From the sequence record NZ_CP106961.1: DNA of 64,000 nucleotides; one strand, 5' to 3'. The notes under the pieces were generated by a model. That model saw nothing but the letters and a program-made list of their open reading frames with translations. It did not search any database and was not told the DNA's origin. Both the position numbers and the translations under genes were made by a program. Source of the DNA: a plasmid. Shown in pieces: positions 7,261 through 30,168 of this stretch (position 1 is its first letter; each line of letters opens with the position of its first letter).

Positions 7261-7671
7261 TATGCTAAGCAGGTGTAGATATTTGGCATATGTATAGATT
7301 TGACTTCTTCGAAGTGATAAAAGTGCGCATGCGATAGATGTAAAAATGCTCTATATAACTCAATTAATCTTTACTTCAACAAGCATCGGACCTTACTCAA
7401 TTAACTGGTGTAGACTTAAAAGCTAAATCTACACTAGAAAAGCTTGAATACAGGTTGTTGTAGAAACAGAGAAGAGCATGGAGAAAGCAGAAAAATGGAT
7501 ATTTGGCAGTGGAATAGTTAATTTAGCTTTTTAAGGAAAAAAAGCCCATGTATTCCATGGACTCTTTCTTAGATGCTTCGTTTATTCTGTCCAACTTTTG
7601 GGTGTCAGTACAAAACGAGGCCATTTGTTTGACTCGACACAAACAGAATAGCCTTTTAACTGCCGCAAGGC

Positions 7672-9230: not shown

Positions 9231-9323
9231 CCGTCTGAGCGGTACGCGTAAATGAGACGTTATGGTAAATAGTCATCTTGTCAGTGCTATGCTTGGCATA
9301 AACACAATTCTGGATGGTGAAGC

Positions 9324-9500
9324 ATGATTAGTTTTGATCTTGGAAGCGATGGATTCAAAGCGGAGTGTAGTGATAACGATACGGCAGAAATAATTGTCGC
9401 TAGCGCTGTTGGTGTTGCCGTAGTCGCCCTAGCCTCTGCGGGCGCTTATGCCATTGTGAACAAAGTGTCTGAGTCGGTAATTCAGTTGATTGAAGAGTGA
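9324..9500 (+). CDS. Small (58 aa) predicted single-pass membrane peptide (MISFDLGSDGFKAECSDNDTAEIIVASAVGVAVVALASAGAYAIVNKVSESVIQLIEE)
   Basis: Translated by hand; it falls below the cutoff of the supplied ORF track. There is a weak SD (GGTGA) upstream and a rho-independent terminator (agctcgccatgcgagcttttt) at 9536-9562 downstream. Confidence 0.3.
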   Translation: MISFDLGSDGFKAECSDNDTAEIIVASAVGVAVVALASAGAYAIVNKVSESVIQLIEE

Positions 9501-9770
9501 TTATTTAGTTCGATATCTTTACAAGCTTAAGCCAAAAGCTCGCCATGCGAGCTTTTTCATGCTCTTCGTATTATGCGACGTTATGGTAAATAGTCTGAAC
9601 TAATGTCAGCGAAGAGCGGACGTTGGTAGATTACAATTAACAGCTGTCGGGTCACGAGATGTTTTTTTTGATTGTTACTCAAATACAATTCTCTCCGAAG
9701 ACTGAGGATACATCGACCATTTATCATAATTGCTGTGGCAGAAAGGAATGTTTTTCTGCCACATACGGGG

Positions 9771-10307
9771 TCAGTTTACTTTTGGAAAGTCCACCACGGT
9801 GTCATTCACACGGTTGACCATATTCGTAAACAGAATCGCACTGACTGCACTGATGACTTCTACTACCTGTCGATCGCTAAAGCCTGCTGCCAGAAAACGA
9901 CTGACGGTTTCTTCTGGTAAGGTGTTGCGGGTCGTCACCAGAGTTTTTACAAATTTGACCAATGCATCAATATGCGGATCTTCCGGGAACTCTCCCCGGC
10001 GTAATGCCTTAATTTGCTCAACGCTGTAACCTGCCATTTTCCCGGTTAACGTATGCGCCGCCAGACAGTAATCACATCCTGACACTTCACTGACCACAAG
10101 GTTAACGGCTTCAATTTCCTGTTTATTCAGCTGGCTTTTCGCCAGCGTGGCGTTGTGTGACAATGCCTGACCCAGAATGTCGGGGGCGATCCCGATGGTC
10201 TGGTAGGCATTCGGGACTTTACCCATCGCTCGTTTAATGGCGCTGAAGAGATCTGCAGTCTTGCCAGTAGCATTTTCAGGTTGTACGGAAGTTAAACGGC
10301 TCATCAT
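9771..10307 (-). CDS. Carboxymuconolactone decarboxylase/AhpD-family protein
   Basis: 178-aa ORF carrying the CxxxH (CDYCLAAH) motif of the CMD/AhpD family. Confidence 0.75.
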   Translation of the reverse strand: MMSRLTSVQPENATGKTADLFSAIKRAMGKVPNAYQTIGIAPDILGQALSHNATLAKSQLNKQEIEAVNLVVSEVSGCDYCLAAHTLTGKMAGYSVEQIKALRRGEFPEDPHIDALVKFVKTLVTTRNTLPEETVSRFLAAGFSDRQVVEVISAVSAILFTNMVNRVNDTVVDFPKVN

Positions 10308-10424
10308 TTTTTCCTTTCAGTTTAGGGTTTCGCCGTATCGGCCATGAGCACATAATAGGGCTTACCAGGCAGGCAGGTAGGCCGTATCGTCTCGATTATT
10401 TGTCTTATCGTCTCAGGAGCCAGA

Positions 10425-11333
10425 GTGGACAACCTCAGTCGTTTGCTTTCCTTATTTACTCCAGCATGTAGCGTTAATCTTCACTGCCGTTTTGCCGGGC
10501 GCTGGGATGTCGACCACCCGCAACAAGCCGCCGGTATTGTGCCCTGGCATGTCATTCTTCGTGGCGAAACGCGGCTCATTGTTGAAGGAAAGACGTTCGA
10601 TGTGCGCGCCGGTGATATCATTCTGTTCCCGCACGGATCCCCGCATTTATTGCAAAGCCTGGTGGACTGGGGGCAGGTTGTTCCTGCTCAGGTCAACAAT
10701 AATGGCATTGTCACTGATGTGTGGACGGAAGGACCGGGGCCTGCGGTTGAGGTATTGTGTGGAGAGTTTCATTTCGGGCCGGGTTATCGCTGGATGTTCG
10801 CCGATGAAACGGTACTGATCCATCTCCGTGCCGATGAGCAACACGATTGCCCTGAGCTGGAAACGCTGCTGGTAATGCTGGTACGCGAAAGTCTGGGTGG
10901 TTTACCGGGCGGTGCGAGTATCGTTAAGGGGCTGGCAGATACGTTGCTCGCGCTAATCCTGCGTATTTTGCTGTCGCTGCACGAGCCTCCTGCGGGTGTT
11001 TTACGGCTACTGAGCGACAAACGTCTTGCTCCTGCCGTTCTGGCCGTTATCGCTGATCCTGCATTGCCATGGACGATGGAGTCGATGGCGCAACGCTGTT
11101 TTCTCTCACGCGCCACCTTCGCCCGCCACTTTTCACACAGCTATCATCAGACGCCCCAAGTCTGGCTCAACCAGTTACGTATGGTGTTAGCGGCAAGACT
11201 GCTTTCAGAAGAGAAAAATCTGACAGCAGAGAGAGTGGCTGAACAGTGTGGTTTTTTGTCTCTGTCGTCTTTTTCTAAAGCGTTCAAAAAAACCTATGGC
11301 ATAACGCCTGCTCTGCACCGTAAACGTGGGTAG
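10425..11333 (+). CDS. AraC-family transcriptional regulator (cupin N-terminus plus AraC HTH)
   Basis: The C-terminal HTH_AraC signature (…LTAERVAEQCGFLSLSSFSKAFKKTYGITP) is present. Confidence 0.8.
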   Translation: MDNLSRLLSLFTPACSVNLHCRFAGRWDVDHPQQAAGIVPWHVILRGETRLIVEGKTFDVRAGDIILFPHGSPHLLQSLVDWGQVVPAQVNNNGIVTDVWTEGPGPAVEVLCGEFHFGPGYRWMFADETVLIHLRADEQHDCPELETLLVMLVRESLGGLPGGASIVKGLADTLLALILRILLSLHEPPAGVLRLLSDKRLAPAVLAVIADPALPWTMESMAQRCFLSRATFARHFSHSYHQTPQVWLNQLRMVLAARLLSEEKNLTAERVAEQCGFLSLSSFSKAFKKTYGITPALHRKRG

Positions 11334-11351
11334 AGTGAACCATGCCGTAAA

Positions 11352-12287
11352 TTAACGCCCTGCGCGAAGCGACTGAGGTGGAATGCCATACCCGCGAATA
11401 AACACCTCCCGCATATGTCGTCTGTCGCGAAAACCGGACTCGCGGGCAATGGCATCCAGTGATAGGCGGCTTTGTTCAATCATTAATCTGGCAGCCTCAA
11501 GTCGGAGTCCTTCAATGGCTTTTGCCGGAGATTTACCCGTCTCCTGACGAAAAAGGCGGCTAAGTTGGCGGGCACTGATATGTACCGCATCTGCCAGCAG
11601 TTCCACCGTCAGTGTTTTGTGCAGATTATTACGGGCATATTCCAGCGCAGTTTGCAGACGGTCTGAGCGGGGTGCCAGGGCAAGAATTTCTGAATGCTGC
11701 GTCTGACCGCCGGAACGGCGCTGGTTCATTACCAGACGATGTGCCACAGTACGGGCAATGTCTGCGCCGAGATCTTTCTCCACCATGCCGAGTGCCATAT
11801 CCAGCCCGGCTGTCATGCCAGCCGATGTCCAGATAGTGTCATCAATAATAAAAATACGATCATCTTCAAGCTGAATAGTGGGATGTCGCGAAGCCAGGCT
11901 GTGTGAGTGTGCCCAGTGCGTAGTGGCGCGTTTTTGCTCCAGCAGCCCGGCCTGTGCCAGTACAAATGCCCCGGTGCAGATCCCGGCAATCCGGCGCGTC
12001 TGGCGGGCGGTGGCTTGCAGAAAGTGAATGACACCCGGGCTAGCCGGTTCATCCACTGGCGATAATACGCCCGCCACCAGCCAGGTATCCACCTGCGTTT
12101 CCTCGCTCAATTTTGCCGAGTCTACACCAATACCCGAAGAAGAACGTACAGTCCCACCGTGTTCGGAGTAGACCTCGGGTTGATAAAACGGACTTTCAGT
12201 CACCAGATTGGCAAACTCAAATACCGTCAGCGTAGACAGCGCCAGCATCTGGAAATGGTCGGCAATGATGAGTCCTAAACGGTGCAT
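11352..12287 (-). CDS. GlxA-family regulator (DJ-1/PfpI domain plus AraC HTH)
   Basis: 311-aa ORF with a DJ-1-like N-terminus (…AGICTGAFVLAQAGLL) and an AraC-type C-terminus. Confidence 0.8.
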   Translation of the reverse strand: MHRLGLIIADHFQMLALSTLTVFEFANLVTESPFYQPEVYSEHGGTVRSSSGIGVDSAKLSEETQVDTWLVAGVLSPVDEPASPGVIHFLQATARQTRRIAGICTGAFVLAQAGLLEQKRATTHWAHSHSLASRHPTIQLEDDRIFIIDDTIWTSAGMTAGLDMALGMVEKDLGADIARTVAHRLVMNQRRSGGQTQHSEILALAPRSDRLQTALEYARNNLHKTLTVELLADAVHISARQLSRLFRQETGKSPAKAIEGLRLEAARLMIEQSRLSLDAIARESGFRDRRHMREVFIRGYGIPPQSLRAGR

Positions 12288-12297
12288 CTCAACTCCT

Positions 12298-13500
12298 TTA
12301 TGACAGGTGAACCGCCTGATATTTCGCAGAACGTGCTCGTAACCATTCAGACGTCCACAGACTGGCCAGTGCCAGCAGCAGGAACAGGACTGAGCTTATC
12401 ATTACTCCGTAAAACCCCGACAGCGGATAAAGCCATGATGCCACCGCCGACCCAAAACCAATACCGCAGAACATAAAGGCGCTGGTTAACGCCAGCGAAA
12501 TTCCACGCGTTTCCGCGGTCGAGATCTCCACAATACGTCGCTGTTGAGTGGGCCATAACAGGTCAGTGGAGAAGGCCCAGACCACCAGCAGGATATACAA
12601 CAATGACAACTGAGCAGGTAGCAGAATAATAATCAGCATATCCGCAACCAGTAAGGTCAGACCGGCAACCAGTAATTGCTCTGCACTGTAGTGGCGTGCG
12701 GCGCGAGTAACAAAAAGATTCCCCACAATACCCGCAATGCCGATAACAGCCAGCGCTATCGATACGGAAGATATATCCCCCTGCCAGCGATCTCGGATAA
12801 TCGGAGAGATAAAGGCATACATATCGTATACACCGGAGGTGATAAAAAAGACCACCAGAAAGGCTGTCAGCGTTTTCCCCTCTGTAAGTACCCGGGCGAC
12901 CTGCCGCAAATGAATATCGGCACCTTTGACCTCGTTCGGAACCAGAATCCACACTCCCGCCGCCGTCACCAGGCTGACCAGTGTGACAAGCATGAACAGC
13001 AAGCGAGCCCCCCAGGCGCTGGCTACCCATGTCGCAAGCGGAATACCGACCATGCTGGCCATCGACACCCCGAGCAGAATAGTGGCAATGGCACTGCCAC
13101 GCTCTTTCGGCGCGACCAGCTCAGCGCCGAGCGCGACCAGAACTGGGCCTATCAACGATGCCCCCAGCCCCATCACAATCCGCGAAGCCACCAGCAGCTT
13201 GTAGTCTGGAGCAATGGCAAATATAAAGGCCCCGAGCCCAAATACCAGCATGCCTGCCAGCACCTGTGTTCTGCGCATCAGCTTGCCGAACAGTACCTGC
13301 GCCAGCGGTGCGCCCAGCGCAAATGTCAGACCAAAAATAGAGAGCAGGCGGGCACTTTGTGCATCGCTTATCCCCCACTCCTGAGAAATCGAACCCAGGC
13401 TGCCCGCCACGGAAAGTGAACCCGTCGCCTGAATAAAATACGCCAGACTTAGCGCCCATAACGCGCGCCTTTGAGATGTTGTCAGATGATTTTGCATCAT
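12298..13500 (-). CDS. MFS transporter
   Basis: 400-aa ORF with 12 predicted TM segments and an MFS motif (G.L.D..GRR-like). Confidence 0.8.
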   Translation of the reverse strand: MMQNHLTTSQRRALWALSLAYFIQATGSLSVAGSLGSISQEWGISDAQSARLLSIFGLTFALGAPLAQVLFGKLMRRTQVLAGMLVFGLGAFIFAIAPDYKLLVASRIVMGLGASLIGPVLVALGAELVAPKERGSAIATILLGVSMASMVGIPLATWVASAWGARLLFMLVTLVSLVTAAGVWILVPNEVKGADIHLRQVARVLTEGKTLTAFLVVFFITSGVYDMYAFISPIIRDRWQGDISSVSIALAVIGIAGIVGNLFVTRAARHYSAEQLLVAGLTLLVADMLIIILLPAQLSLLYILLVVWAFSTDLLWPTQQRRIVEISTAETRGISLALTSAFMFCGIGFGSAVASWLYPLSGFYGVMISSVLFLLLALASLWTSEWLRARSAKYQAVHLS

Positions 13501-13539
13501 AAACTCCAGGGATGGGGCAGTTACCTGCCCCTGAGTCGG

Positions 13540-14301
13540 TCAGGCAACCGGAATGGGGTTATCTACCATTGACTGATTAAACGCGTTCACCATCTCGTGT
13601 TCGTTCACACCCGGATTCGCACGTGCAGGGAGCACACTATCTACAATCACTTCAATGGAATCTGTCGCCAGTTTGTCAAAAGTTTGCTGGATAAAATCAG
13701 CTACCGGCATCGCACGGGAATCACCGCTTTTGTAGATCAAATCGGTATCGACCCAAGGCGGTGAAATCTCGATCACATTCACACCGGCATCGCGCAGTAA
13801 AAAACGCTGCGACAGGGTATAAGAATGAATCGCTGCTTTGGTTGCTGAGTAGAGTGCATTCGTCACCAAGGGTAAAAAAGCCAGAATCGAACTGTTGTTG
13901 ATCAATACCGCATCCGGTTGTTGTTTCAGGTGCTCAACAAAGGCTGAACTGACCCGAACAGTGCCCAACAGGTTCGTGTCCAGTAAGGTGGTGGCCATAT
14001 CGTCATCCAGTTCGGCAGCTGGATTATCGAAGGGCATAATGCCAGCGTTATTGATCACCACATTCAGGGCCGGATAGCGGGAGAGCACCTCTTTCGCCGC
14101 CGATTTAATGCTGGATACATCGGTGACATCCAGTACCACGGAATCCATTCCCGGATTGGCGGACGTAACCGTGTCAAGAAGAGCTTTACGACGGCCTGAA
14201 ATGATCACCTGATTACCCATTTGATGAAATTTTTCTGCCATCTCGCGGCCAATACCCGACGTGCCGCCAGTGATAAAAATAGTGTTGCTTGTCAGTTTCA
14301 T
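13540..14301 (-). CDS. SDR-family oxidoreductase
   Basis: TGGTSGIG Rossmann motif. The start is set at MKLTSNTIF. Confidence 0.8.
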   Translation of the reverse strand: MKLTSNTIFITGGTSGIGREMAEKFHQMGNQVIISGRRKALLDTVTSANPGMDSVVLDVTDVSSIKSAAKEVLSRYPALNVVINNAGIMPFDNPAAELDDDMATTLLDTNLLGTVRVSSAFVEHLKQQPDAVLINNSSILAFLPLVTNALYSATKAAIHSYTLSQRFLLRDAGVNVIEISPPWVDTDLIYKSGDSRAMPVADFIQQTFDKLATDSIEVIVDSVLPARANPGVNEHEMVNAFNQSMVDNPIPVA

Positions 14302-14330
14302 ACGGTTATTCCTGTTGGCTAAATACAAGG

Positions 14331-15146
14331 CTAGTGAGTAAGTCCGGCACGATAACGGCCGGCGGGTACATTGCTGGAGAGGTGCGGGATCATAGCCTGG
14401 CGACTACTTTCCATCGCCTGCCAGTAAGCTTCGTTATGCAGTGACGGGATGGTGACAAATTCCCCGTTAAGAAAACCCGTAAGCGCCGCGTCCACCAGAT
14501 CGTAAGCGCTCATTACTATTGACTTATCGAGTTGGTCAAGGGGTAAACCACCGTTATCCCAGAACGGCGTTGCTGTCGCGCCCGGCAGCACGGCCTGAAA
14601 ATGGATGCCCTTTTCAGAGAGTTCATGATGCAGTGACTGAGTGAATGCCAGAACAAAGGCTTTTGTGCCGCCGTACACGCCGTTAAGCAGTTCCGGCGCA
14701 AGGCTGACAATCGATGAGATATTGATGATGGCACCCACACCTCGCGCGACAAATCCGGGAACCACGCTGTAAGTCAGACGGGTCAGAGCAACGACATTGA
14801 GATTAATCATCGCCTGCATTTGATCGACATCGCTCGACAACAACGGCGTATGAGTTCCGACACCGGCATTGTTCACCAGGAGAGTAATGCTGTCATCGGC
14901 ACGCAGTTTTTTCTCCAGAGCAGCAAGCTGTTGGGCATCACCCAGATCGGTTGCCAGCACTTCCACATTGCGGGCGGTGTCAGCAGTGATGTGACTCGCC
15001 ATCTGATTTAGGCGGTTATGATTACGGGCGATAATGGTAAGGTCGTATCCCATGCGCGCCAGTCGACTGGCGTAAACGGCACCGATGCCGGTGGATGCAC
15101 CAGTGATTACGGCAGTGCCTTTACCCGGTTGTGTTGCGACACTCAT
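14331..15146 (-). CDS. SDR-family oxidoreductase
   Basis: TGASTGIG and NNAG motifs. Confidence 0.8.
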   Translation of the reverse strand: MSVATQPGKGTAVITGASTGIGAVYASRLARMGYDLTIIARNHNRLNQMASHITADTARNVEVLATDLGDAQQLAALEKKLRADDSITLLVNNAGVGTHTPLLSSDVDQMQAMINLNVVALTRLTYSVVPGFVARGVGAIINISSIVSLAPELLNGVYGGTKAFVLAFTQSLHHELSEKGIHFQAVLPGATATPFWDNGGLPLDQLDKSIVMSAYDLVDAALTGFLNGEFVTIPSLHNEAYWQAMESSRQAMIPHLSSNVPAGRYRAGLTH

Positions 15147-15509
15147 TGCAGACTCCTTTCGATCACCATTGATTCGATGAGAGAATCATAAGTGAGAAAG
15201 AAATGTCGTAAATGACAATTATGGTAGTTATTTAGGACATTGCGTATTTCTGTTCAAGTAACGGGCAGGAGAGAAAGTAACTATCGGGCTGCGGTTTCAT
15301 TTCAGACACATAAGACTACTTACGGTGTGTAGTAATGTCCGCTCCTGGCACGGAGCGGACCAGCTAACTGAGCTGAAGGTCCGCTGTGAGCGAAAAGCGG
15401 ACATCCAAGAATTGATGAAAAGTACAACATCTTCAGGTAATAAATAAATTTCGCCGAAATAATGTAATTACCGACCCGAAGGCCGGTAATTGTTAACACT
15501 GATAACCTT

Positions 15510-16496
15510 TTACCACGCGTAAGCTTCAGGTGCCTCTCCGCCTGGCCCCGGCCAGATGGTATCCAGCCTTTTGAGCGTATCGTCTGAAAGAGACAGCGTC
15601 AGGGCATTGAGATTCTGACGGAGCTGTTCAACTGTACGCGGACCACTGAGCACGGCGCTAACCACCGAGTTCTGCAGTAGCCAAGCCAGCGCGACGTCTG
15701 ATGGTGTTTCCCCCAGCTCATCACACAGTGTTTCCCAGGCCTCCAGTTGTGGCCGCAGGCGGTTGATTTGTGCCTGCAACTGCGGTGATGCCCGGCGGCC
15801 ACCGGCAATTTTCTTCAGAACACCGCCCAGCATCCCCATCCCGACCGGGCTCCAGGGGATCAGGCCAATGCCGTAATGACGCAGCGCCGGAATGATTTCT
15901 AGCTCAATCGTGCGCTGGGTCAGATTGTACAGGCTCTGTTCCGATGCCAGCCCCAGCAGGTTGCGCGCGTCAGCCTTGCACTGTGCAGTGGCAATATCCC
16001 AGCCAGCAAAGTTACTGCTGCCAACGTAGCTGATTTTACCCTCTCGGATCAGCTGTTCCATGGCCTGCCAGATCTCCTCCCAGGGCGTGTTCCGGTCGAT
16101 ATGGTGCATCTGATAGAGATCGATATGGTCCGTTTTCAGCCTTTTCAGGCTGGCCTCACAGGCCCGCCGGATATGGTAGGCAGACAGGTATTTGTCGTTC
16201 GGCCCCGTGTCCATCGGCTGGTAAACTTTCGTGGCCAGCACTATCCGGTCACGCTGACCACTACGCGCCAGCCAATTACCGATGATTTCTTCGGATGTTC
16301 CGTAACCCTTTGCCATATCCGGTGACTGCGGCCCGCCATAGACGTCAGCGGTATCGAAAAAGTTGATACCTGCATCCACGGCTTCATCCATGATCCTGAA
16401 GCTGGCAGACTCATCCGTCAGCTCACCGAAATTCATGGTACCGAGACCGATGCGGCTCACCCGCAGACCGGTACGCCCCAGATGTTTGTAATTCAT
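15510..16496 (-). CDS. Aldo/keto reductase
   Basis: 328-aa ORF with an AKR signature (GLGTMNFG...DTADVYG). Confidence 0.85.
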   Translation of the reverse strand: MNYKHLGRTGLRVSRIGLGTMNFGELTDESASFRIMDEAVDAGINFFDTADVYGGPQSPDMAKGYGTSEEIIGNWLARSGQRDRIVLATKVYQPMDTGPNDKYLSAYHIRRACEASLKRLKTDHIDLYQMHHIDRNTPWEEIWQAMEQLIREGKISYVGSSNFAGWDIATAQCKADARNLLGLASEQSLYNLTQRTIELEIIPALRHYGIGLIPWSPVGMGMLGGVLKKIAGGRRASPQLQAQINRLRPQLEAWETLCDELGETPSDVALAWLLQNSVVSAVLSGPRTVEQLRQNLNALTLSLSDDTLKRLDTIWPGPGGEAPEAYAW

Positions 16497-16521
16497 GTCA
16501 AATGCTCCTTAACTGAACGTG

Positions 16522-17550
16522 TTATTGCAGATTTTTACGGAAAAAGTCTTTCAGCTTGTCAAAAGGGATGACGTCGGTACGGTCATACAGATCGACATGC
16601 CCTGCGCCCGGTACGACATACAGTTCTTTAGGCTGACCGGCGCGTTTGAAAGCGTCCTCGCTGAACTCTTTTGAGTGAGCCTGATCGCCGGTAATAAACA
16701 GCATCGGGCGCGGCGAGATGGTTTCAATATCGTTGAACGGATAGAAGTTCATAAACTTGCCAATACTGCTCAGCATCGGTTTCGTCGTCAGTTCTTCTTT
16801 CTGACCCTGTGGGGTGTAGCCGCCGCGTTCGGTGCGGTAGAAATCAAAGAACTCGCGCTGAATATCAGGCGTTGAAGCGTCCAGTGTATTCACGGTACCG
16901 GGAATGTAGGCCGTCTCGCCTCCCTGAAACTCTGCTAAACGCTGCTCTGTGGCTGACCGGATAAAGGCCTTTCGTTGTTCCGGCGTCTGGGAATGGTTGA
17001 GGCCGTTGCGAAATGCAGCCCCCATGTCATACATGCTGACGGTGGCAATGGCTTTCATACGCGGGTCAATCTTGGCAGCACTGATAACAAAACTTCCGCT
17101 GCCGCAGATACCTAATACACCGATGCTATCCGGATCGACAAACGGCTGTGTGCTTAGATAATCAACCGCCGCGCTGAAATCATCTGTGTAGATTTCCGGT
17201 GAAATCAGGTGCCCCGGTTTGCCCTCGCTTTCTCCCCAGAAAGAGAGATCGATAGCCAGCGTGACAAACCCCTGCTCCGCCAGCTTCTGCGCATAGAGAT
17301 TCGAACTCTGTTCCTTAACGGCTCCCATCGGGTGACCAACGACGATCGCCGGGTGTCGGGTATTCTGGTTCATCTTTTTCGGGATAAACAGGTTGCCGAC
17401 CACGGCCATCTGATACTGGTTTTTAAAGGTGACTTTTTGCTGCGTCACCTTATCGCTTTTATAAAAATTATCGGCCCCACGGGACATATCCGCCGCAGAG
17501 GAAGCAAATGCACTGATCAACAGCCCCAGCGCTAACGTAAATTTTTTCAT
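16522..17550 (-). CDS. Secreted alpha/beta-hydrolase (dienelactone-hydrolase-like)
   Basis: The start is set at MKKFTLALGLL (signal peptide) with an AAGGAG RBS. A GxSxG-like GICGSG nucleophile elbow is present. Confidence 0.7.
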   Translation of the reverse strand: MKKFTLALGLLISAFASSAADMSRGADNFYKSDKVTQQKVTFKNQYQMAVVGNLFIPKKMNQNTRHPAIVVGHPMGAVKEQSSNLYAQKLAEQGFVTLAIDLSFWGESEGKPGHLISPEIYTDDFSAAVDYLSTQPFVDPDSIGVLGICGSGSFVISAAKIDPRMKAIATVSMYDMGAAFRNGLNHSQTPEQRKAFIRSATEQRLAEFQGGETAYIPGTVNTLDASTPDIQREFFDFYRTERGGYTPQGQKEELTTKPMLSSIGKFMNFYPFNDIETISPRPMLFITGDQAHSKEFSEDAFKRAGQPKELYVVPGAGHVDLYDRTDVIPFDKLKDFFRKNLQ

Positions 17551-17566
17551 GATGGTCTCCTTATCA

Positions 17567-18613
17567 TTAAGCCAGGGTGGCGTTATCAATGACAAACCGG
17601 TAATGCACATCGCCCCTGAGCATGCGCTCATAGGCATCGTTAATCTGGTCGGCGCGGATAAGCTCAATGTCGGCGACAATGCCGTGTTGGGCGCAGAAAT
17701 CGAGCATCTCCTGCGTTTCAGGAATGCCGCCAATCATCGACCCGGCAATCGATCTGCGCTTCATGATGAGGCTGAACACTTCTGGCGAGCCATGCGGCGT
17801 GGCCGGCGCACCCACCAGGGTCATCGTGCCATCGCGTTTCAGCAGCGCAGTGAACACGTCGAGGTTATGCGGCGCAGCAACGGTGTTGAGGATAAAATCG
17901 AAGCTCTTTGCATGGGCTTCCATTTCGCTGGCATGACGGGAGACCACCACCTCATCTGCACCAAGCGCTCTGGCGGCGTCACGTTTGGACTCAGACGTGG
18001 TAAAGGCTACGACATGCGCGCCCATGGCGTGCGCAAGCTTGATCCCCATATGCCCCAGTCCACCGATACCGACCACGCCGACCTTTTTGCCGGGGCCCGC
18101 CTGCCAGTGACGCAGCGGTGAGTACGTTGTGATCCCTGCGCACAGCAGCGGAGCCACGGCGGCTAGTTGCGCTTCTGGGTGAGTGACGCGCAGGACATAG
18201 CGCTCATGCACCACAATCTGCTGCGAATATCCGCCCAGCGTGTGGCCCGGCGCATCCGGCGTTGGGAAATTGTATGTCCCTGTCATATGGTCGCAGTAGT
18301 TCTCCAGTCCGTCGTCACAGTCACTGCAGTGCCGGCAGCTGTCGACAATGCAGCCGACCCCCACCAGGTCCCCTGCACAAAAACCGGAGACGTGATCGCC
18401 AACGGCCACGACACGACCGACAATTTCATGTCCCGGTACGCAGGGATAGAGCGTTCCAGCCCATTCAGCGCGTACCTGGTGGATATCCGAATGGCAGACT
18501 CCGCAGTACGCGATATTAATCTGCACATCATGGGCACCGGGGGCGCGACGGGTGATATCCATCGGCTCCAGCGGCAGTGTGCCCGCATGGGCACCGTAAG
18601 CTTTAACTGTCAT
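17567..18613 (-). CDS. yahK: Zn-dependent NADPH alcohol/aldehyde dehydrogenase, YahK-like
   Basis: 348-aa ORF closely resembling E. coli YahK (GVCHSDIH...GHEIVGRVVAVG; GIGGLGH). Confidence 0.8.
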   Translation of the reverse strand: MTVKAYGAHAGTLPLEPMDITRRAPGAHDVQINIAYCGVCHSDIHQVRAEWAGTLYPCVPGHEIVGRVVAVGDHVSGFCAGDLVGVGCIVDSCRHCSDCDDGLENYCDHMTGTYNFPTPDAPGHTLGGYSQQIVVHERYVLRVTHPEAQLAAVAPLLCAGITTYSPLRHWQAGPGKKVGVVGIGGLGHMGIKLAHAMGAHVVAFTTSESKRDAARALGADEVVVSRHASEMEAHAKSFDFILNTVAAPHNLDVFTALLKRDGTMTLVGAPATPHGSPEVFSLIMKRRSIAGSMIGGIPETQEMLDFCAQHGIVADIELIRADQINDAYERMLRGDVHYRFVIDNATLA

Positions 18614-18629
18614 GGCATTACTCCTGGGT

Positions 18630-19847
18630 TTATGAATGGTCTGCGGCAGAAGTGTCTGCCCGCGAGGTCAGGAAGATCAGTACGGTTGCGATAATCAGCA
18701 TCGCGGCGCTGGCCAGGAAGGTGCTCTGGTAGCCGTGATGGTCGAAAAGCAGGCCGCCCAGCGTCGAACCGAGAGCAATGGACAGCTGCACCATCGCCAC
18801 CATCAGTCCGCCGCCCGCTTCGGCATTCTGAGGGAAGGTACGCGGAACCCATGCCCACCATCCCACCGGTGCGGCTGTGGAAATCAGCCCCCACAGCCCA
18901 AGCAGCGCCGTCACGATGGCTACCTGACTGCCGAAGGCAATCAGTGCCAGCGCGGTGATGGCCATCAGTACCGGGATGGCCATCAGGGTCGGGTAGAACC
19001 CGCGTTTTAACACCCGGCCAATCAGCGTAGTGCCGATGAAACCCGCGACACCAATAACCAGCAGGACCAGTGTCACTGTTGCGTCATCCACCCGCGTCAC
19101 CGTCTCAAGGAAAGGCCTGATGTAGGTAAAGAGCGTGAATTGCCCCATAAAGAAGATCCCCACACCCAGCATGCCCAGCGTGACCACCCGGCGACGAAAC
19201 AGCATGAAAACGTTGCGGGAAGCCGCCGCCTGACGGGTGACCGACATGGAAGGCAGACTGAGTAATTGCCAGACAAACGCGATGATGGCGACCGGCACCA
19301 GGCAGAAGAAGGCGCCCCGCCAGCCAACAACCGATCCGAGCCAGCTGCCCAGAGGGGCAGCCACGACGGTAGCCAGAGCATTGCCGCTGTTGAAAATAGC
19401 CAGCGCCAGCGGAACACGATGCACCGGGACCAGACGCATTGCCGTCGCGGCCGACATCGACCAGAACCCGCCGACCACAATGCCAATCAGGGCCCTGCCC
19501 GCCATATAGGTCAGGTAATTGGGTGCCATCGCAATAACAGCACCGGAAATTGCCATAATGCAGGTCAGGCCGAGCAGCAGCGTTTTCCGGTTAAGCGTGC
19601 CTGCCAGCACGGAAATAAACAGGCTGGTTACCACTGCAAATGCCCCGGAAATAGCGATGCCCTGTCCGGCCATGCCTTCGGTGACACGAAGGGTCTTCGC
19701 CATCGGTGTCAGCAGGCTGACCGGCATGAATTCGGAGGCGATCAGGGCGAAGACGCACAGCGTCATGGCAAAGACACCACTCCAGTGCGCAGGCTGTTTC
19801 CCGCTTCCGGTGTTTTTTTTTCTGTTTTCGTCTGTCTTATTACTCAT
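18630..19847 (-). CDS. MFS transporter (DHA1-type efflux)
   Basis: 405-aa ORF with 12 predicted TM segments. Confidence 0.8.
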   Translation of the reverse strand: MSNKTDENRKKNTGSGKQPAHWSGVFAMTLCVFALIASEFMPVSLLTPMAKTLRVTEGMAGQGIAISGAFAVVTSLFISVLAGTLNRKTLLLGLTCIMAISGAVIAMAPNYLTYMAGRALIGIVVGGFWSMSAATAMRLVPVHRVPLALAIFNSGNALATVVAAPLGSWLGSVVGWRGAFFCLVPVAIIAFVWQLLSLPSMSVTRQAAASRNVFMLFRRRVVTLGMLGVGIFFMGQFTLFTYIRPFLETVTRVDDATVTLVLLVIGVAGFIGTTLIGRVLKRGFYPTLMAIPVLMAITALALIAFGSQVAIVTALLGLWGLISTAAPVGWWAWVPRTFPQNAEAGGGLMVAMVQLSIALGSTLGGLLFDHHGYQSTFLASAAMLIIATVLIFLTSRADTSAADHS

Positions 19848-19974
19848 TCAGGGATTTCTTTTCAGTAGATAACATGAAGTCTGTGCCCCGGAGCCTTCAG
19901 CGCTGCAGGAAGAGCTGAAACGGCATACGGAGACGGGATAAGAGGGATAATCGCGGTACGGAAGGTGCTGCGGG

Positions 19975-20460
19975 TCAGTTGGCGACCCTGATCTGCACCG
20001 CAAGAGGTCCGTGGCGCTGCAGGACCGGCAGTCCGGAATCCACTTTCCCTAACGGGATCAGTGAACGGGCGTAAGCCCTGCCCCGGGCAAAAATCGCCAG
20101 GTTGCCCCAGGGCGCGTAGTAAGTGATATCTCCGGCTTCCGGCGTCATGCCGTCCGGTGCCTGCACCGTGGAAAGCCTGCGCGGCAGGTCGCTTATACGC
20201 TCAATATCGTCATAGTCTTCCAGCGTCAGGCTGAGGGGAAGCAAAGACGCAAAGTCCCGGCCTGTCGGCGTATCAAAGAGGGTGGCGGTGGCGGTTTCTC
20301 CCTCCACAATGATCTCAATTTTCATAAGCGTCTCCTGCGCCACTCCCCGGTCGTTGTCACCCGCCATAGCGGACTGCGTGACGAAAAGCAGGCCGGCAAG
20401 GAGCAGCAGTGATGTTCTGCGGTAAGCGTTTTGCATAAGGGTTAGCGTTGACTTTTTCAT
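19975..20460 (-). CDS. Secreted cyclophilin-like-fold protein
   Basis: 161-aa ORF with a signal peptide. It resembles the 'cyclophilin-like superfamily' proteins commonly annotated in Enterobacteriaceae. Confidence 0.5.
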   Translation of the reverse strand: MKKSTLTLMQNAYRRTSLLLLAGLLFVTQSAMAGDNDRGVAQETLMKIEIIVEGETATATLFDTPTGRDFASLLPLSLTLEDYDDIERISDLPRRLSTVQAPDGMTPEAGDITYYAPWGNLAIFARGRAYARSLIPLGKVDSGLPVLQRHGPLAVQIRVAN

Positions 20461-20552
20461 CGCATTATTGTTACCAATATGCAGCGGGTTAACTAGCTAA
20501 TGAATACTTAATACCCTTATAAGTAAAATTTATAAATGGACCGGAAACGAGC

Positions 20553-21452
20553 ATGGCCAGACGCAATCTTAACGACTTACTCTCTTTCGTCACCGTGGCG
20601 CGTGAGGGCAGCTTTACGCGCGCTGCCGCCCAGCTCGGCGTGACCCAGCCCGCACTGAGCCAGGCGATTTCCGGGCTGGAAGAACGGATGCAAATCCGCC
20701 TGCTGACAAGGACCACGCGCAGTGTGTCAGTGACGGCTGCCGGGGAGCGCCTGCTGCAGTCTGTGGGACATCGTATTGATGAGATTGAAACCGAGCTGGA
20801 CATGCTGACGGCACTGCGTGATAAACCTGCCGGGACCGTCCGTATTACATGTGGACCTAATGTTCTGAAGACCACACTGCTGCCAAAGCTGACACCACTG
20901 TTACGCGAATATCCTGATATTCATATTGAGTTTGATGCCAACCACGGCTTCCGGGATATCGTTGCGGATCGTTTTGATGCCGGCGTGCGGCTCGGAGACA
21001 CTATCGACAAAGATATGATAGCCGTACCCATTGGCCCGAAACTGCGCATGGCGGCTGTAGCTTCCCCTGAGTATTTCGCCCGGTGCGCCGCCCCTCAGAC
21101 GCCACGCGATCTGATGCAACACTGCTGTATTAATGAGCGCATGGTTCAATCGGGGAAAATTTACGCCTGGGAGTTTGAGCAGGAAAACGGTAAATTTCAC
21201 GTTCGGGTTGAAGGGCAACTGACGTTTAACACATCGGAACACGTCGTTGACGCAGCTCTTGCCGGACTGGGCATTGCCTTTTTACCTGAAGAGGAGTTCG
21301 GCACACATCTGCAGGAAGGAAAACTGATCCGCGTGCTTGAAGAATGGTGCCGTCCTTTTCCCGGCTACTATCTTTATTATCCCAGCCGTAAACAGCCTTC
21401 CCCAGCGTTTTCACTCGTTGTGGATGCGTTGCGTATTAACCGGAAAATTTAA
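20553..21452 (+). CDS. LysR-family transcriptional regulator
   Basis: N-terminal LysR HTH (…SFTRAAAQLGVTQPALSQAISGLE) and a LysR substrate-binding domain. Confidence 0.85.
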   Translation: MARRNLNDLLSFVTVAREGSFTRAAAQLGVTQPALSQAISGLEERMQIRLLTRTTRSVSVTAAGERLLQSVGHRIDEIETELDMLTALRDKPAGTVRITCGPNVLKTTLLPKLTPLLREYPDIHIEFDANHGFRDIVADRFDAGVRLGDTIDKDMIAVPIGPKLRMAAVASPEYFARCAAPQTPRDLMQHCCINERMVQSGKIYAWEFEQENGKFHVRVEGQLTFNTSEHVVDAALAGLGIAFLPEEEFGTHLQEGKLIRVLEEWCRPFPGYYLYYPSRKQPSPAFSLVVDALRINRKI

Positions 21453-21477
21453 CGCTGAATTATCGGGCCAATATTTC

Positions 21478-21503
21478 AAGAACGGACGTGAACGTCCGCT
21501 TTT
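21478..21503 (+). terminator. Rho-independent terminator after the lysR-family gene
   Basis: cggacgtgaacgtccg followed by cttttgg. Confidence 0.5.
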
Positions 21504-21569
21504 GGCACTAAGCGGACTGTGATCACACTTCTGACGTCTCGTTTTCTGACTTCCTTCGTGGCTTGCCCT

Positions 21570-21602
21570 AAGCATGTTGTAGTGCGATACTTGTAATGAC
21601 AT
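21570..21602 (+). promoter_or_regulatory. relBE operator/promoter (relO palindrome cttgtaatgacatttgtatttacaag)
   Basis: Inverted repeat read from the sequence directly upstream of relB. It matches the known relO architecture. Confidence 0.7.
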
Positions 21603-21626
21603 TTGTATTTACAAGAGGTGTGAGAC

Positions 21627-21866
21627 ATGGGTAGCATCAACCTGCGTATTGACGATGAACTTAAAGCGCGTTCTTACGCTGCGCTTGAAAAAATGGGTGT
21701 AACTCCCTCTGAGGCACTTCGCCTCATGCTTGAATATATTGCTGACAATGAACGTTTGCCGTTCAAACAGACACTCCTGAGTGATGAGGATGCTGAGCTC
21801 GTGGAGATCGTGAAAGAACGACTTCGCAATCCTAAGCCAGTACGTGTGACGCTGGATGAGCTCTGA
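21627..21866 (+). CDS. relB: RelB antitoxin
   Basis: The 79-aa ORF is nearly identical to E. coli K-12 RelB (MGSINLRIDDELKARSYA…). Confidence 0.9.
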   Translation: MGSINLRIDDELKARSYAALEKMGVTPSEALRLMLEYIADNERLPFKQTLLSDEDAELVEIVKERLRNPKPVRVTLDEL

Positions 21867-22153
21867 TGGCATATTTTCTGGATTTTGACGAGCGTGCACT
21901 AAAGGAATGGCGAAAGCTGGGCTCGACGGTACGTGAACAGCTAAAAAATAAGTTGGCTGAAGTGCTTGAGTCACCCCGAATTGATGCGAACAAGCTTCGG
22001 GGTATGCATGACTGTTACAAAATTAAGCTCCGGTCTTCAGGCTATCGTCTTGTATATCAGGTCATAGACGAGAAGGTTGTCGTCTTTGTGATTTCTGTCG
22101 GGAAAAGAGAGCGCTCGGAAGTTTATAGCGAGGCGGTCAAACGCATTCTCTGA
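21866..22153 (+). CDS. relE: RelE mRNA interferase toxin
   Basis: The 95-aa ORF is nearly identical to E. coli RelE (MAYFLDFDERALKEWRKLG…). Confidence 0.9.
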   Translation: MAYFLDFDERALKEWRKLGSTVREQLKNKLAEVLESPRIDANKLRGMHDCYKIKLRSSGYRLVYQVIDEKVVVFVISVGKRERSEVYSEAVKRIL

Positions 22154-22209
22154 AATAAAGCAGGACATCTCTGTTTCGCAGTAAAGGTGCCATTTCTGCT
22201 TTGCGTTGA

Positions 22210-22476
22210 CAGGGAGGTAAGGCCATTGTTAACGCCAAGCTGTAATGTCCCCTTTGAATCATTCTAAAATGTCCCCAGACAATTATCTGGGGGGACATGG
22301 TAAAAGAAACAATTACGATGAGACATAAGGAACTTGACAGACTTCAGATTATTCAGGACTCAATCAATTGCCATATAATCAGGAACAAGCGGCGGTGCGA
22401 ATTGGTATTTCCATCCGGCAAGTTAAACGTCTGGTGCATCGATATCGAAATAAAGGTTCTGTTGGCCTTATCAATG
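22210..22476 (+). mobile_element. Truncated, frameshifted left end of a second, diverged IS481-family element
   Basis: It is about 80% identical to the 7672-7940 terminus and to the tnp N-terminus (MVKETITMRHKELDRLQIIQ…, then a frameshift). It is cut off at 22476 by IS911. Confidence 0.6.
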
Positions 22477-24786: not shown

Positions 24787-25206
24787 TCAAAGGAACCACT
24801 CTGGTTTGACACCAAAACGAGCAGACAGCGCCTTAATGTGCATGATTGTCAGTGACCGCTGACCAGAGAGAATCTGGCTAACCAGCGATTTAGAGCCGAT
24901 CTCCTCCTTAAGGTCAGAATAAGACAGCCTGTACTGGTCAATCAGGGTGCGCAGAAGGGCAACGCCGACTGGCATTTCAGCGATAGCCTTGTTGAATTCA
25001 GCGAAACGAGGGCTGTTATCCTCATAGTCAGCAATTTTACTCGCCAGGAAGTCAATAAGCGGGTTCTCGTCGTCGTTTTCGATCAGATAGTCCACCAACT
25101 CTATCGCTTCGCGGTAATCGCTCTCGGACGAACTGCCCCCCAGGAAGGGAACAGCAGCTACGAGTTGTTTGGTTGCTTCAATGGCTTTTGCAGTGTCGGT
25201 AATCAT
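24787..25206 (-). CDS. higA: HigA antitoxin (Xre-family HTH)
   Basis: The 139-aa ORF is similar to E. coli HigA (…GSKSLVSQILSGQRSLTIMHIKALSARFG). Confidence 0.85.
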   Translation of the reverse strand: MITDTAKAIEATKQLVAAVPFLGGSSSESDYREAIELVDYLIENDDENPLIDFLASKIADYEDNSPRFAEFNKAIAEMPVGVALLRTLIDQYRLSYSDLKEEIGSKSLVSQILSGQRSLTIMHIKALSARFGVKPEWFL

Positions 25207-25514
25207 TCTTTGTTCTCCCTGTAATAGCGGGTCAACTTGTCGTAATCAGCGTGGGTGGCGATGTGCTTCACATAGAAGCGTTTATTCACGAAATTGATAT
25301 AGGCGATAACCCTCAAGTTGTTGCCCCCTACATCCAACACCCACCACTTATTACGATACTTAAAATTGTCCAGGCTCGGTATCAGCGTTCGCATCTCAGC
25401 TGGAGAAGAAAAGTCCGTCTCGCGGACTAAGCGGTACAGCGCCCGAACGGCTAACGAATCGTTGGGATATTGCTTTGCCGCTTCCTCAAAAGGCTCTTTT
25501 GAAATTACGTGCAT
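25203..25514 (-). CDS. higB: HigB toxin (RelE/ParE superfamily)
   Basis: The 104-aa ORF from MHVISKEP resembles E. coli HigB (…PSLDNFKY…). It overlaps higA by 4 bp. Confidence 0.85.
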   Translation of the reverse strand: MHVISKEPFEEAAKQYPNDSLAVRALYRLVRETDFSSPAEMRTLIPSLDNFKYRNKWWVLDVGGNNLRVIAYINFVNKRFYVKHIATHADYDKLTRYYRENKE

Positions 25515-26562: not shown

Positions 26563-26961
26563 TCAGAAATCATCCAGAGTTTTACCTGCTGAAAGTTGCT
26601 CAGTTAGATCTTTAGGAGTGCGTCCCTGACCCGTCCATGTTTTGGTCTCACCATTTTCATCAGTAAATGTATATTTGGTAGGGCGAGGCTCACGGAATTT
26701 CTTCGGTGAGGAAGATTTTGAAGAGAATGCGCCCATTAGCTCTTCAGGGTTAATACCATCTTCTTCCATTAATTTACGCAGGGCTTCAAATTTTTCCTGA
26801 CGAGCTTGCAGGGAAGCTGCTTTGGATGATTCTTCCTCACGACGTTCAGAGACAACTACTTCTAACTTTTCAAGGATTTCTTCGAGAATTTCTAAAGGAA
26901 GCTCACGGCCCTGAGCGCGAAGAGTACGGATATTGTTTAATGATTTGAGCACTTCAGACAT
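26563..26961 (-). CDS. hns: Plasmid-encoded H-NS-family nucleoid protein
   Basis: The 132-aa ORF (MSEVLKSLNNIRTLRAQGRE…YTFTDENGETKTWTGQGRTP) resembles H-NS/StpA. It is flanked by AT-rich DNA. Confidence 0.85.
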   Translation of the reverse strand: MSEVLKSLNNIRTLRAQGRELPLEILEEILEKLEVVVSERREEESSKAASLQARQEKFEALRKLMEEDGINPEELMGAFSSKSSSPKKFREPRPTKYTFTDENGETKTWTGQGRTPKDLTEQLSAGKTLDDF

Positions 26962-27516
26962 GTGAACTCACTTAAAAATAAACTTAGAATTAACGCCAGA
27001 TAATAACACATATTTTTGGCGGTAATACGCTACCCTTTAAGAAAAAACTCACATTCACCAATAAGTTGAAACAATATCAGTACTGAGATATGGACATTTT
27101 TAATCAACTAAACCTAGCAATGCAGGGATTCTGTCAGGTGATGAAATCCCGAATTATAGGCATTTCACACTGTAAAACCCGGGAGGGGAGTGGGATAAGG
27201 CGTCTTGTGTATCAGCAAGCATCTTGTACATCCCCTCCTTTAGGCCTTGTAAATGCAAGGCAGTAAAAATCTGCCCCCCTTAAGAGAAAAAACATAATCT
27301 GAAGCCTCAGAAGATCAGGTTTAAATTAACTTTTCTGAACCCCCTGTCCTGTAACACTTTTAGTCAATTAGTCAGATCAGCTGATTATGAACAATGCTAA
27401 TGCATGTAACACTTTTTTACCAGAAGTGGTCTTCACTTAACAAAATCCTGTACTCAGTCTACTGCTTATGTGCAACTTCTTCGATAAAAGTCGCACATGG
27501 TAATGCTGCCTTATGT

Positions 27517-27720
27517 TTAACTTTTCATGAATAAGTTAAACATGGAGTGAACTCTGATGTTCAACTTTTTTATAAAAAGTTAAACATGGAGTGAAATCTT
27601 ATGTTCATCTTTTTTATAAAAAGTTAAACATGGAGTGGATTCTTATGTTCAACTTTTTTATAAAAAGTTAAACATGGAAAAATCGACCGTGTTCAACTTT
27701 TTGAGTAAAAGTGTTACAAG
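27517..27720. repeat. Orphan array of 4-5 tandem ~44-bp repeats (tgttcaacttttttataaaaagttaaacatggagtgaaatctta), each containing a 13-bp inverted repeat
   Basis: Period and palindrome read from the sequence. No rep or par gene is adjacent. Confidence 0.7.
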
Positions 27721-28850
27721 TATTAATCAAACTTTCACGGATATACAGGGTACGTAAAAAGTAACTTTTTTTCATGCCATTATTCGTCCATTCCACATTC
27801 TCAATCCCTATCACTGCCTATCAAGCATCGGCGCTGCGCTTAAACACCTTAAAACTATTTTGTGCATTCTGGCAAAACACGTATGGGTGTTGTCTAAAAT
27901 CTTCCCCTGTCTGGTATAGTGGATTAAATCCTTTGTGTAGACTATTCGGATACAGGAGGAGAACATGAGAAACTTGTAAATCAGGCGCTACGAAGCACAT
28001 CAGGATGAGAAATTCAGAAGCCTTGGTAACATAGCCGCTGAAGGTAGAGAGATCTGCAATTACCGGGCGCTCTGAAAGGCGTATAACCTGAAAGGCGTAT
28101 AACAAGTCTGTAATTTCAGCTACAGATGTGCTAAAATAAGATGCAGAAAAACTGGGCAGTAGATTGTAATCCACAAGCATCCACCATCTGGGATGATAAA
28201 TGGATTTCGAAATAGCCAACATCGCTGGCGTCACTGTCATTTTCCTGCCGACAGCTAATATTCTTTGTATTCTGACCTTGATATCCAACAATTAGACGGT
28301 TGCAAAAAAGTCAAATACCTAGTACGTTACTGAAGGGAGATAGTGTCATTCTGCTACGTGACCTGACATTACCCATAAAAGCAGGCAAACCACTCATGTT
28401 TTTCATGTGCTATTTATGCCCACGGCATTTATTTATTAGAAAAAAGAAACTACGCTGGGACGCTTAAAGGTGATATTAACGACTCAATATGGGCTAAATT
28501 TCCGGATAAACGGCGGCTTAAGTTACAGGATACGTTTAAACGGAATATCGCCCATATAGAAGCTATCAGAATAGCAGCAAGTGAAAAGGATCTGCCTTCT
28601 ATCCACGTAGTGTTTATCAACGTAAAATCACGAGTTGATAGTGAAACTGATACACCGAACCGATACTATGGTCTTCAGTACGACACAACGGGAGAATTTT
28701 CACCGTCAATTATCGGTATCGACCTGAATACAAGGGAGCATATTCTACTCTCTGGTGCGACGGCAAAGTCTGACCGAGTAATGAACCTTTAAACCCGCAT
28801 CCAATAAACGCCAAAGCCACCGTGAGTTAACTCGCCTCTTAAGCCGCCTG

Positions 28851-29479: not shown

Positions 29480-30168
29480 AAAGATTTTACCGGTATCCTG
29501 CCATACGCATTACCGGGAGTGCCGCACAGGGAAAATCGTCGGGTACCGCAATGGCGGCAATGGACAAGCTGGCTAAGCACTTACCACCGGGGTTCGCCGG
29601 TGAGTGGGCGGGAAGTTCGTTACAGGAAAGGGAGTCCGCATCACAGCTTCCGGGTCTTATTGTGCTCTCGGTACTGGTGGTATTCATGGTGCTGGCTGCG
29701 CTTTACGAAAGCTGGTCCGTTCCCTTCGCGGTCATACTCGTTGTTCCTCTGGGGCTGCTTGGCGCTGTGCTCGCCGTATCCGTTACGAATATGACGAATG
29801 ACGTCTTTTTCAAAGTGGGCCTGATAACCCTGATTGGACTTTCCGCCAAGAATGCGATTTTGATTATCGAGTTCGCGAGACAATTGATGAATGAAGGAAA
29901 GAGCCTTATTGATGCGACATTGATGGCAGCAAAGCAGCGCTTGCGGCCAATACTCATGACTTCTCTGGCTTTCACATTAGGTGTTGTTCCGCTGATGCTC
30001 GCCAGTGGAGCCAGCGACAGCACGCAGCATGCGATTGGCACCGGTGTATTCGGCGGGATGATTAGCGGAACGCTACTGGCCATTTTCTTTGTTCCGGTAT
30101 TTTTCGTGGCGATCACCCGATTTACTGGCATGCGAAAAGGCAGACCTGGGAATAGCCGGAACGGCTAA
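29480..30168 (+). pseudogene. 3' fragment of an AcrB-like RND efflux pump gene (C-terminal ~200 aa only)
   Basis: …[27 protein letters not shown]…[13 protein letters not shown]…[12 protein letters not shown]…[10 protein letters not shown] matches TM8-12 of AcrB-family pumps. The upstream sequence is a different frame and protein. Confidence 0.75.

Follow-up and report, generated by a model that had tools for sequence, protein, structure and literature searches.

The DNA analysed here is a 64,000-nucleotide stretch of a plasmid (record NZ_CP106961.1; hereafter the window), which carries at 27467-27720 an array of palindromic 44-bp units that we consider as a candidate origin of transfer (oriT). 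An earlier note, made from the letters alone, had reported four to five copies at 27517-27720. Tandem Repeats Finder reported a repeat at 27510-27678 with a period of 44, 3.8 copies and 90% matches, and reading the array in register gave six units starting at 27467, 27512, 27556, 27600, 27644 and 27688, i.e. with a spacing of 45, 44, 44, 44 and 44 bp. Thus, the existence and the place of the array are confirmed, while its extent had been drawn slightly too narrow on the left. The inverted repeat in each unit likewise stands; however, instead of 13-bp arms with a 2-bp gap, units 3 and 5 have 14-nt arms (ATGTTCAACTTTTT and AAAAAGTTAAACAT) that are 93% complementary and lie 3 nt apart. The consensus palindrome of each unit is ATGTTyAACTTTT-N5-AAAAGTTrAACAT, and the form conserved over related loci has 13-14-nt arms flanking a 5-nt centre. 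Of the six, units 2-5 are good copies; the first unit is degenerate and the last a hybrid, as follows (distances are from the ATG of the mobI pseudogene described below):

27467-27499, no strand assigned: unit 1, degenerate palindrome TATGTGCAACTTCT-TCGAT-AAAAGTCGCACATG, starting at -498
27512-27544, no strand assigned: unit 2, TATGTTTAACTTTT-CATGA-ATAAGTTAAACATG, starting at -453
27556-27588, no strand assigned: unit 3, GATGTTCAACTTTT-TTATA-AAAAGTTAAACATG, starting at -409
27600-27632, no strand assigned: unit 4, TATGTTCATCTTTT-TTATA-AAAAGTTAAACATG, starting at -365
27644-27676, no strand assigned: unit 5, TATGTTCAACTTTT-TTATA-AAAAGTTAAACATG, starting at -321
27688-27720, no strand assigned: unit 6, hybrid of an array-type left arm GTGTTCAACTTTT and a right arm AAAAGTGTTACA that is an inverted TGTAACACTTTT motif, starting at -277

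The 31-mer of the array, with up to three mismatches allowed, occurred three times in the window, and a degenerate palindrome pattern five times; all of these occurrences were inside the array. Dinucleotide-preserving shuffles gave 0.00 matches to either, i.e. chance alone would yield none. Units 3-5 are near-identical to one another, spacers included, and the plasmid pLEC-5e18 (L022, NZ_CP026390.1) lacks exactly 88 bp, or two units, relative to window 27557-27644 while being otherwise identical over the aligned region. Because of these two observations, the array is evidently evolving by unequal recombination.

The array lies in an intergenic region between the remnants of two genes. The left-hand remnant is of a trhR-like gene, trhR being the IncHI neighbour of oriT, and the right-hand one is of a mobI gene:

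27101-27220, minus strand: 5'-end remnant of a trhR-like gene; in IncHI-like Tra1 regions, this gene is the divergent neighbour of oriT (blastn; right boundary approximate)
27221-27964, plus strand: oriT-like intergenic region; its homologue in conjugative relatives lies between the trhR-like gene and mobI (five-way alignment, blastn)
27350-27361, plus strand: first direct copy of the TGTAACACTTTT motif, left of the array
27405-27416, plus strand: second direct copy of the TGTAACACTTTT motif, left of the array
27707-27729, plus strand: AAAAGTGTTACAAGTATTAATCA, the longest block without any change among the five aligned loci, made up of the right arm of unit 6 and the next ten bases
27949-27960, plus strand: conserved ribosome-binding region of mobI, GATACAGGAGGA (five-way alignment)
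27965-28156, plus strand: mobI pseudogene, 5' third only (tblastn and nucleotide alignment to the mobI of L014, a relative introduced below)

The mobI pseudogene begins 245 bp past unit 6. By tblastn it matched residues 1-42 of MobI with 43% identity and in-frame stops, and the match carries on in another frame. Alignment to the L014 mobI showed a TAA at codon 5, a 3-bp deletion and insertions of 11 bp and 5 bp. A perfect 16-bp tandem duplication (CTGAAAGGCGTATAAC x 2) at 28072-28103, inside the pseudogene, is one frame-disrupting insertion.

Eight Leclercia/Enterobacter plasmids of replicon cluster 2218 share the array region at 98.5-100% identity; pLEC-5e18, the plasmid short by two units, is among them, and all eight are typed as non-mobilizable. 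Nucleotide matches to the array region were confined to this plasmid group and included no IncHI plasmid. The sister plasmid pLA-109 carries a second, diverged array directly upstream of an intact gene annotated as mobI(A/C) (Pfam PF19456), and the window region, reverse-complemented, aligned end to end with this mobI-upstream region and into the start of mobI. A whole-genome pattern scan added one relevant locus, in Escherichia sp. ESNIH1, in which an array with one unit fewer is likewise upstream of an intact mobI (PF19456); the four remaining matches of the scan each consisted of a lone palindrome, present by chance in an unrelated metagenome-assembled genome. Six of the nine PLSDB plasmids with either copy of the array also have an intact oriT-mobI copy.

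Public assemblies contain MobI proteins that are 71-78% identical to MobI of pLA-109. Among them are three metagenome or read-archive assemblies (L014, Logan SRR18123588; L015, JGI 3300011235; L017, ENA ERZ21616130; MobI 73-78% identical) with complete transfer regions. In these Tra1 contigs, one strand carries the genes for TraG_N, TraH and TraF, a 167-aa gene and a 274-aa gene; a 755-bp intergenic region follows, and the opposite strand then carries mobI, a 226-aa gene and the genes for a TraI_2 (MOBH) relaxase, a coupling protein, a 362-aa protein, a DtrJ-like (TraJ-like) protein, an S49 peptidase and a NERD protein. Their intergenic region contains the palindrome ATGTTyAACTTTT-N5-AAAAGTTrAACAT in five to six units at 44-bp spacing. 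Window 27101-28156 matched L014 9122-10179 with 74% identity over 1083 bp by blastn (77% for the two intergenic regions), and this 1.06-kb stretch of the window is the homologue of three adjoining pieces, namely the 5' ends of the trhR-like gene and of mobI with the intergenic region between them. Upstream of traH/mobI, the IncHI1 plasmid pHCM1 has a 266-aa gene, with which the 274-aa (trhR-like) gene of L014 (8422-9246, minus strand) shares 41% identity (E 1e-75). In L014 and L017, the units start at -500, -455, -410, -366, -322 and -278 from the ATG of mobI; because these distances agree with those in the window (-498 to -277), the array is positionally orthologous to that of the intact transfer regions.

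Downstream of the mobI fragment, the window carries one more gene that belongs to these transfer regions:

28200-28712, plus strand: pseudogene of a NERD-domain gene (tblastn 37-54% identity in two frames, E 1.5e-25)

The nucleotide alignment of this pseudogene opens exactly at the NERD ATG and contains frameshifts and a 40-bp deletion; the L014 NERD protein has a Pfam NERD match. In the conjugative relatives, the NERD gene is located ~9 kb downstream of mobI, whereas in the window it follows directly after the mobI fragment. This junction marks a single ~9-kb deletion that fused the two and removed the 3' end of mobI, traI, the genes for the coupling protein, the TraJ-like protein and the S49 peptidase, and the open reading frames (ORFs) of 226 aa and 362 aa. 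Since a frameshifted NERD copy abuts the mobI fragment, the window copy is therefore a Tra1 remnant.

Three findings bear on the class of this element. First, the array is located upstream of a gene of the MobI family (PF19456), which is a pseudogene in the window and intact at the paralogous and orthologous loci. Second, it shares homology with the intergenic region of modules whose products include a MOBH (TraI_2) relaxase together with a coupling protein and a TraJ-like protein. Third, it consists of phased ~44-bp palindromes of the form ...ACTTTT-N5-AAAAGT... in the trhR-traH/mobI intergenic region. Altogether, the comparison suggests that the array is probably the repeat block of an oriT of the type associated with MobI/TraH and a MOBH relaxase, left over from an IncHI-like Tra1 region of which the DNA-processing genes were deleted.

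To describe the conservation of the region, we aligned the loci of the window, pLA-109, ESNIH1, L014 and L017 and computed identities relative to the window copy. In pLA-109, L014 and L017, identity was 85-90% in the palindrome arms, 43-47% in the 5-nt centres, 36-48% in the spacers between units and 61-79% in the flanks; the ESNIH1 copy was lower in every class, with 71% in the arms. The half-site consensus is yATGTTyAACTTTT, in which T3, G4, T5 and C10 through T14 are essentially invariant and positions 6-8 are variable. The hybrid unit 6 was found in all five loci, as was, without change, the block TAACACTTTTTTAC (27407-27420), which overlaps the second TGTAACACTTTT copy. The invariant AAAAGTGTTACAAGTATTAATCA at 27707-27729 is, by inference only, a candidate core or nic-proximal element.

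The same data bear on whether the palindromes could work by folding, into hairpins of the transferred single strand or into extruded cruciforms, as a signal for termination, priming or relaxase recognition. As a single strand, the array folded much better than its shuffles (-41.2 kcal/mol vs -22.5 +/- 3.4, z = -5.5), and a few units have symmetric non-consensus arms, e.g. TGTTCGAC...GTCGAACA in L014. However, among the 29 units compared, 59 single-arm changes were observed vs 16 compensated ones, and the latter number is barely above the 11.7 +/- 2.3 expected from shuffling, being reached by 99 of 2000 shuffles. Moreover, the strict 44-bp phasing and the invariant T3 G4 T5 and C10 T11-T14 suit sequence-specific recognition of duplex DNA better. 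The predominance of one-arm deviations and the near-chance level of compensation favour sequence-specific duplex reading over a hairpin, and we consider a hairpin function very unlikely. A structured RNA was also rejected: the sole match in an Rfam scan was a chance match to a microRNA hairpin at 29.6 bits, far below the gathering score of 66.

The closest known system is the trhR-traH region of the IncHI1 plasmids R27 and pHCM1, and also of IncHI2 and IncHI1B, which shares with this lineage the gene order TraF/TraH/TraG_N, 167-aa gene, trhR-like gene, intergenic region, mobI/traH, 226-aa gene and MOBH relaxase gene. In the R27 Tra1 paper, Lawley et al. (2002) reportedly mapped oriT to the traH-trhR intergenic fragment. 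Homologues of MobI with 35-41% identity are the traH/mobI products of IncHI1, IncHI2, IncHI1B and related Klebsiella plasmids, and a MobH relaxase gene follows each of them. As in the window, these intergenic regions contain palindromes of ~31 bp spaced ~44 bp apart; they have the form xxxxxxACTTTT-N5-AAAAGTxxxxxx, are located ~430 to 290 bp upstream of the traH/mobI start in IncHI1 pHCM1, IncHI2 pHK0653, IncHI1B and Klebsiella IncFIB/HI1B plasmids, and have outer bases that are lineage-specific:

IncHI1, IncHI2 and IncHI1B: half-site TAGGGTCACTTTT
Klebsiella IncFIB/HI1B: half-site TTAGTACCTTTT
pKPN-065: half-site TTGGTATCTTTT
pKP1814-1: half-site TTTGTGAATTTT

The two systems differ in several respects. 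The IncHI arrays have four units and the window array has six; the outer arm bases are TAGGGTCAC in the IncHI plasmids and TGTTyAAC in the window array; TraI is 37% identical between IncHI and this lineage, and MobI no more than the 35-41% given above; and the window has lost the DNA-processing genes and retains mobI only as a pseudogene. A TTGTAACACTTTTT / TGTAACACTTTT element is present ~610 bp upstream of traH/mobI in IncHI1, IncHI2 and IncHI1B (L005, L006, L007). The IncHI types and this lineage share the TGTAACACTTTT element at much the same distance even though their palindromes are not alike, and a better conserved component of the relaxosome may bind there.

A MobI gene beside oriT is also found outside the IncHI-like branch. 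MobI-like genes are located directly beside oriT in SXT and R27 (PMC10838148), and the oriT of IncA/C is immediately upstream of mobI (PMC5587640). MobI of IncC gave a single ChIP-exo peak on oriT and forms dimers and higher multimers; a model shows it as an antiparallel dimer, one face of which is positively charged. It recruits TraI through a C-terminal domain, and TraH of R27 is regarded as MobI-like (PMC13635750). IncA/IncC and SXT/R391 resemble the IncHI-like branch in that a MobI gene (PF19456) has its 5' end right beside oriT, and in IncC MobI binds oriT and recruits the MOBH relaxase. By contrast, short inverted repeats (IR2-IR5) and 14-bp direct repeats in the ~150 bp before mobI characterise an oriT of the IncA/C type (Hegyi et al. 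2017), and the IncC oriT (R55 139-323) has inverted repeats of 4-7 bp and direct repeats of 14 bp. Because its repeat set differs, 44-bp phased palindromes are absent from the R55 oriT, and IncC MobI is 25% identical to MobI of this lineage, an oriT of the IncA/C type was rejected.

Based on the ChIP-exo data for IncC, the conservation of the arms and the retention of the array together with mobI, the most likely binder of the array would be an oriT-recognition protein of the MobI/TraH family. The earlier suggestion of binding sites for a trans-encoded protein is therefore supported in spirit, with a MobI/TraH-family protein as the most likely candidate, the intact gene for which is present on most sister plasmids. 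In the mechanism that we propose, each palindrome would bind one two-fold-symmetric MobI/TraH dimer, and the 44-bp phasing, which corresponds to ~four helical turns, would set successive dimers on roughly one face of the DNA. These same-face dimers would oligomerise into a relaxosome scaffold, and the scaffold would present a nearby nick site, for which the invariant block at 27707-27729 is a candidate, to the MOBH relaxase of a helper.

Because the local mobI is dead, the window copy could act only in trans, with MobI provided either by the intact oriT-mobI copy that sister plasmids carry or by a same-lineage conjugative helper; with an intact copy on six of the nine plasmids, the former could supply MobI. 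Relaxase-less islands are mobilisable via an oriT that abuts their own mobI. Islands of the MGIVchHai6 and MGIVflInd1 type lack a relaxase, carry an oriT with or without their own MobI and rely on the TraI and the secretion system of a helper. The sister plasmids resemble them in being typed as non-mobilizable and yet having oriT-mobI. However, the islands are chromosomal and are mobilised by IncC or SXT, whereas the window is part of a plasmid with remnants of an IncHI-like module, and all that is known of its helper lineage comes from metagenome and read-archive assemblies. The L014 TraI is at best only 37% identical to any PLSDB relaxase. The L014/L015/L017 lineage appears to be undescribed and uncharacterised and is likely to be the helper. 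The window copy retains every conserved cis feature, which counts for activity, and the window plasmid may still be mobilisable by a matching helper.

Several observations weigh against the interpretation as an oriT, or against its being functional. The window copy may be inert, given the dead mobI next to it and the loss of the relaxase genes. The mobI fragment at 27965-28156 is within the same 74%-identical blastn match as the intergenic region; thus, the preservation of the array is no evidence of selection after gene loss. The near-identity of units 3-5 points to recent homogenisation and not to constraint. The oriT of IncC, at which MobI binding is proven, has no such array, and no intact helper of the L014/L015/L017 lineage was found among 72,556 PLSDB plasmids or 5,426 complete E. 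coli genomes. Finally, being in a divergent promoter region, the array could instead bind transfer regulators such as TrhR/TrhY.

According to the last of these possibilities, the array would be a set of operators for transfer regulators, either TrhR/TrhY-type activators or others, at the divergent trhR and mobI/traH promoters and not a docking site for the relaxosome. Its location between divergently transcribed trhR-like and mobI genes fits this idea, and so does its co-variation with the plasmid lineage, as a lineage-specific regulator would require. However, in the 20-kb L014 locus both the array half-site and the TGTAACACTTTT motif were confined to the trhR-like/mobI intergenic region; accordingly, half-sites were absent from the rest of Tra1, including the region upstream of the TraF-TraH-TraG_N operon, at which a general activator might act. 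Moreover, the sister plasmids have kept the array alongside an intact mobI while the trhR-like gene has decayed, and MobI is the demonstrated oriT-binding factor in IncC. In total, we regard an operator function as unlikely and favour the relic oriT.

The earlier note had compared the array to the centromere of the F plasmid and proposed a relic parS or second centromere, iterons or an incompatibility determinant. The partition genes of the window, and the centromere that belongs to them, are located at its left end:

295-1476: sopA
1461-2447: sopB
2505-2908: canonical sopC, directly after sopB (26 bp x 15.5 copies, 96% matches, SopB box TGGGACCGTGGTCCCA in each)

The units of F sopC are ~43 bp long, and each contains an inverted repeat. 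The array resembles it in the similar unit length, the tandem arrangement and the inverted repeat in each unit, and this likeness of architecture is what remains of the comparison; in sequence, genomic context and evolutionary origin, the two differ. The array is located 25 kb from sopAB and lacks the TGGGACC SopB box. A type Ia partition centromere (sopC/parS) was rejected, since sopAB have their own cognate sopC at 2505-2908. Iterons are usually direct repeats and not palindromes, and in the sister plasmid pLA-109 the gene for a RepB-family initiator adjoins sopA; with its palindromic units and the sister-plasmid rep gene beside sopA, an iteron-type origin was likewise rejected. In none of the contexts examined was there a par or rep gene beside the array, which was always upstream of mobI or a mobI remnant and is orthologous, position for position, to the mobI-upstream region. 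Altogether, we give hardly any credence to a relic or second centromere, iterons or an incompatibility determinant. The terminus of an insertion sequence (IS) or phage was rejected as well: there was no match in 50,697 phage records, and every recurrence of the array is upstream of mobI.

A further tandem array, of 42 bp x 12.7 copies and with the consensus CATCAATTACGGTCCACAGTCCATCTTTGATGGCTTTCTACT, is present at pLA-109 50402-50937 (L003 402-937) and at L013 3159-4451 and is absent from the window; it adjoins a gene for a 213-aa 'DNA-binding protein' (WP_103181195.1), is located ~1-1.5 kb from the intact mobI copy and may be a second centromere-like or iteron-like array.

The neighbours that had been named for the array, hns and higBA, are present beside it, and its flanking ORFs, which had been described as looking non-coding, are indeed no real genes and overlap pseudogenes:

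24787-25514, minus strand: higBA
26563-26961, minus strand: hns

The 'hypothetical protein' that RefSeq places at 27821-28234 on the minus strand (WP_130588776.1) matched neither a Pfam nor an NCBIfam family. Its frame is antisense to the mobI pseudogene and the oriT-proximal region, and the gene call is probably spurious. Of the AcrB/AcrD/AcrF (RND pump) profile, a 205-aa ORF at 29551-30168 matched positions 830-1020 and no others; this C-terminal fragment of a gene is a further sign that the neighbourhood is a patchwork of remnants. A 14.7-kb block at 7537-22226, with genes for MFS transporters, reductases and a LysR regulator, is 99.8% identical to large Enterobacter plasmids. In the Leclercia sister plasmids inspected, the annotated intervals from sopB to higBA did not show this block, and it may therefore be a recent insertion between sopC and higBA.

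The kind of element described here, an oriT next to mobI/traH, is already known from R27 and IncC, and the array would add to it a further member with a differing site sequence. For plasmid annotation, the lesson is that tandem palindromic 44-bp units need not be centromeres or iterons. The binding of MobI to DNA has so far been shown only as the ChIP-exo peak on IncC, and the phased palindromes upstream of traH/mobI in IncHI1, IncHI2 and IncHI1B are a concrete candidate for a MobI/TraH binding site. Going further, 44-bp-phased palindromes might be a general MobI/TraH recognition code over the IncHI-like (MOBH) superfamily, in which the inner ACTTTT/AAAAGT would be read by all members and the 6-7 outer bases would set the pairing of helper and oriT; we put this forward tentatively, as a possibility with slightly less than an even chance of being correct. 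If it is true, array-bearing 'non-mobilizable' plasmids could be assigned to helper lineages from sequence alone, and an orphan array lacking a working nick site could be a sink for MobI that lowers the helper's own transfer. For the heavy-metal and sugar-utilisation plasmids of Leclercia/Enterobacter, which are typed as 'non-mobilizable', the analysis means that one or two oriT-like loci from a lineage related to IncHI are present on them and that the group may be mobilisable by helpers that are still missing from plasmid databases.

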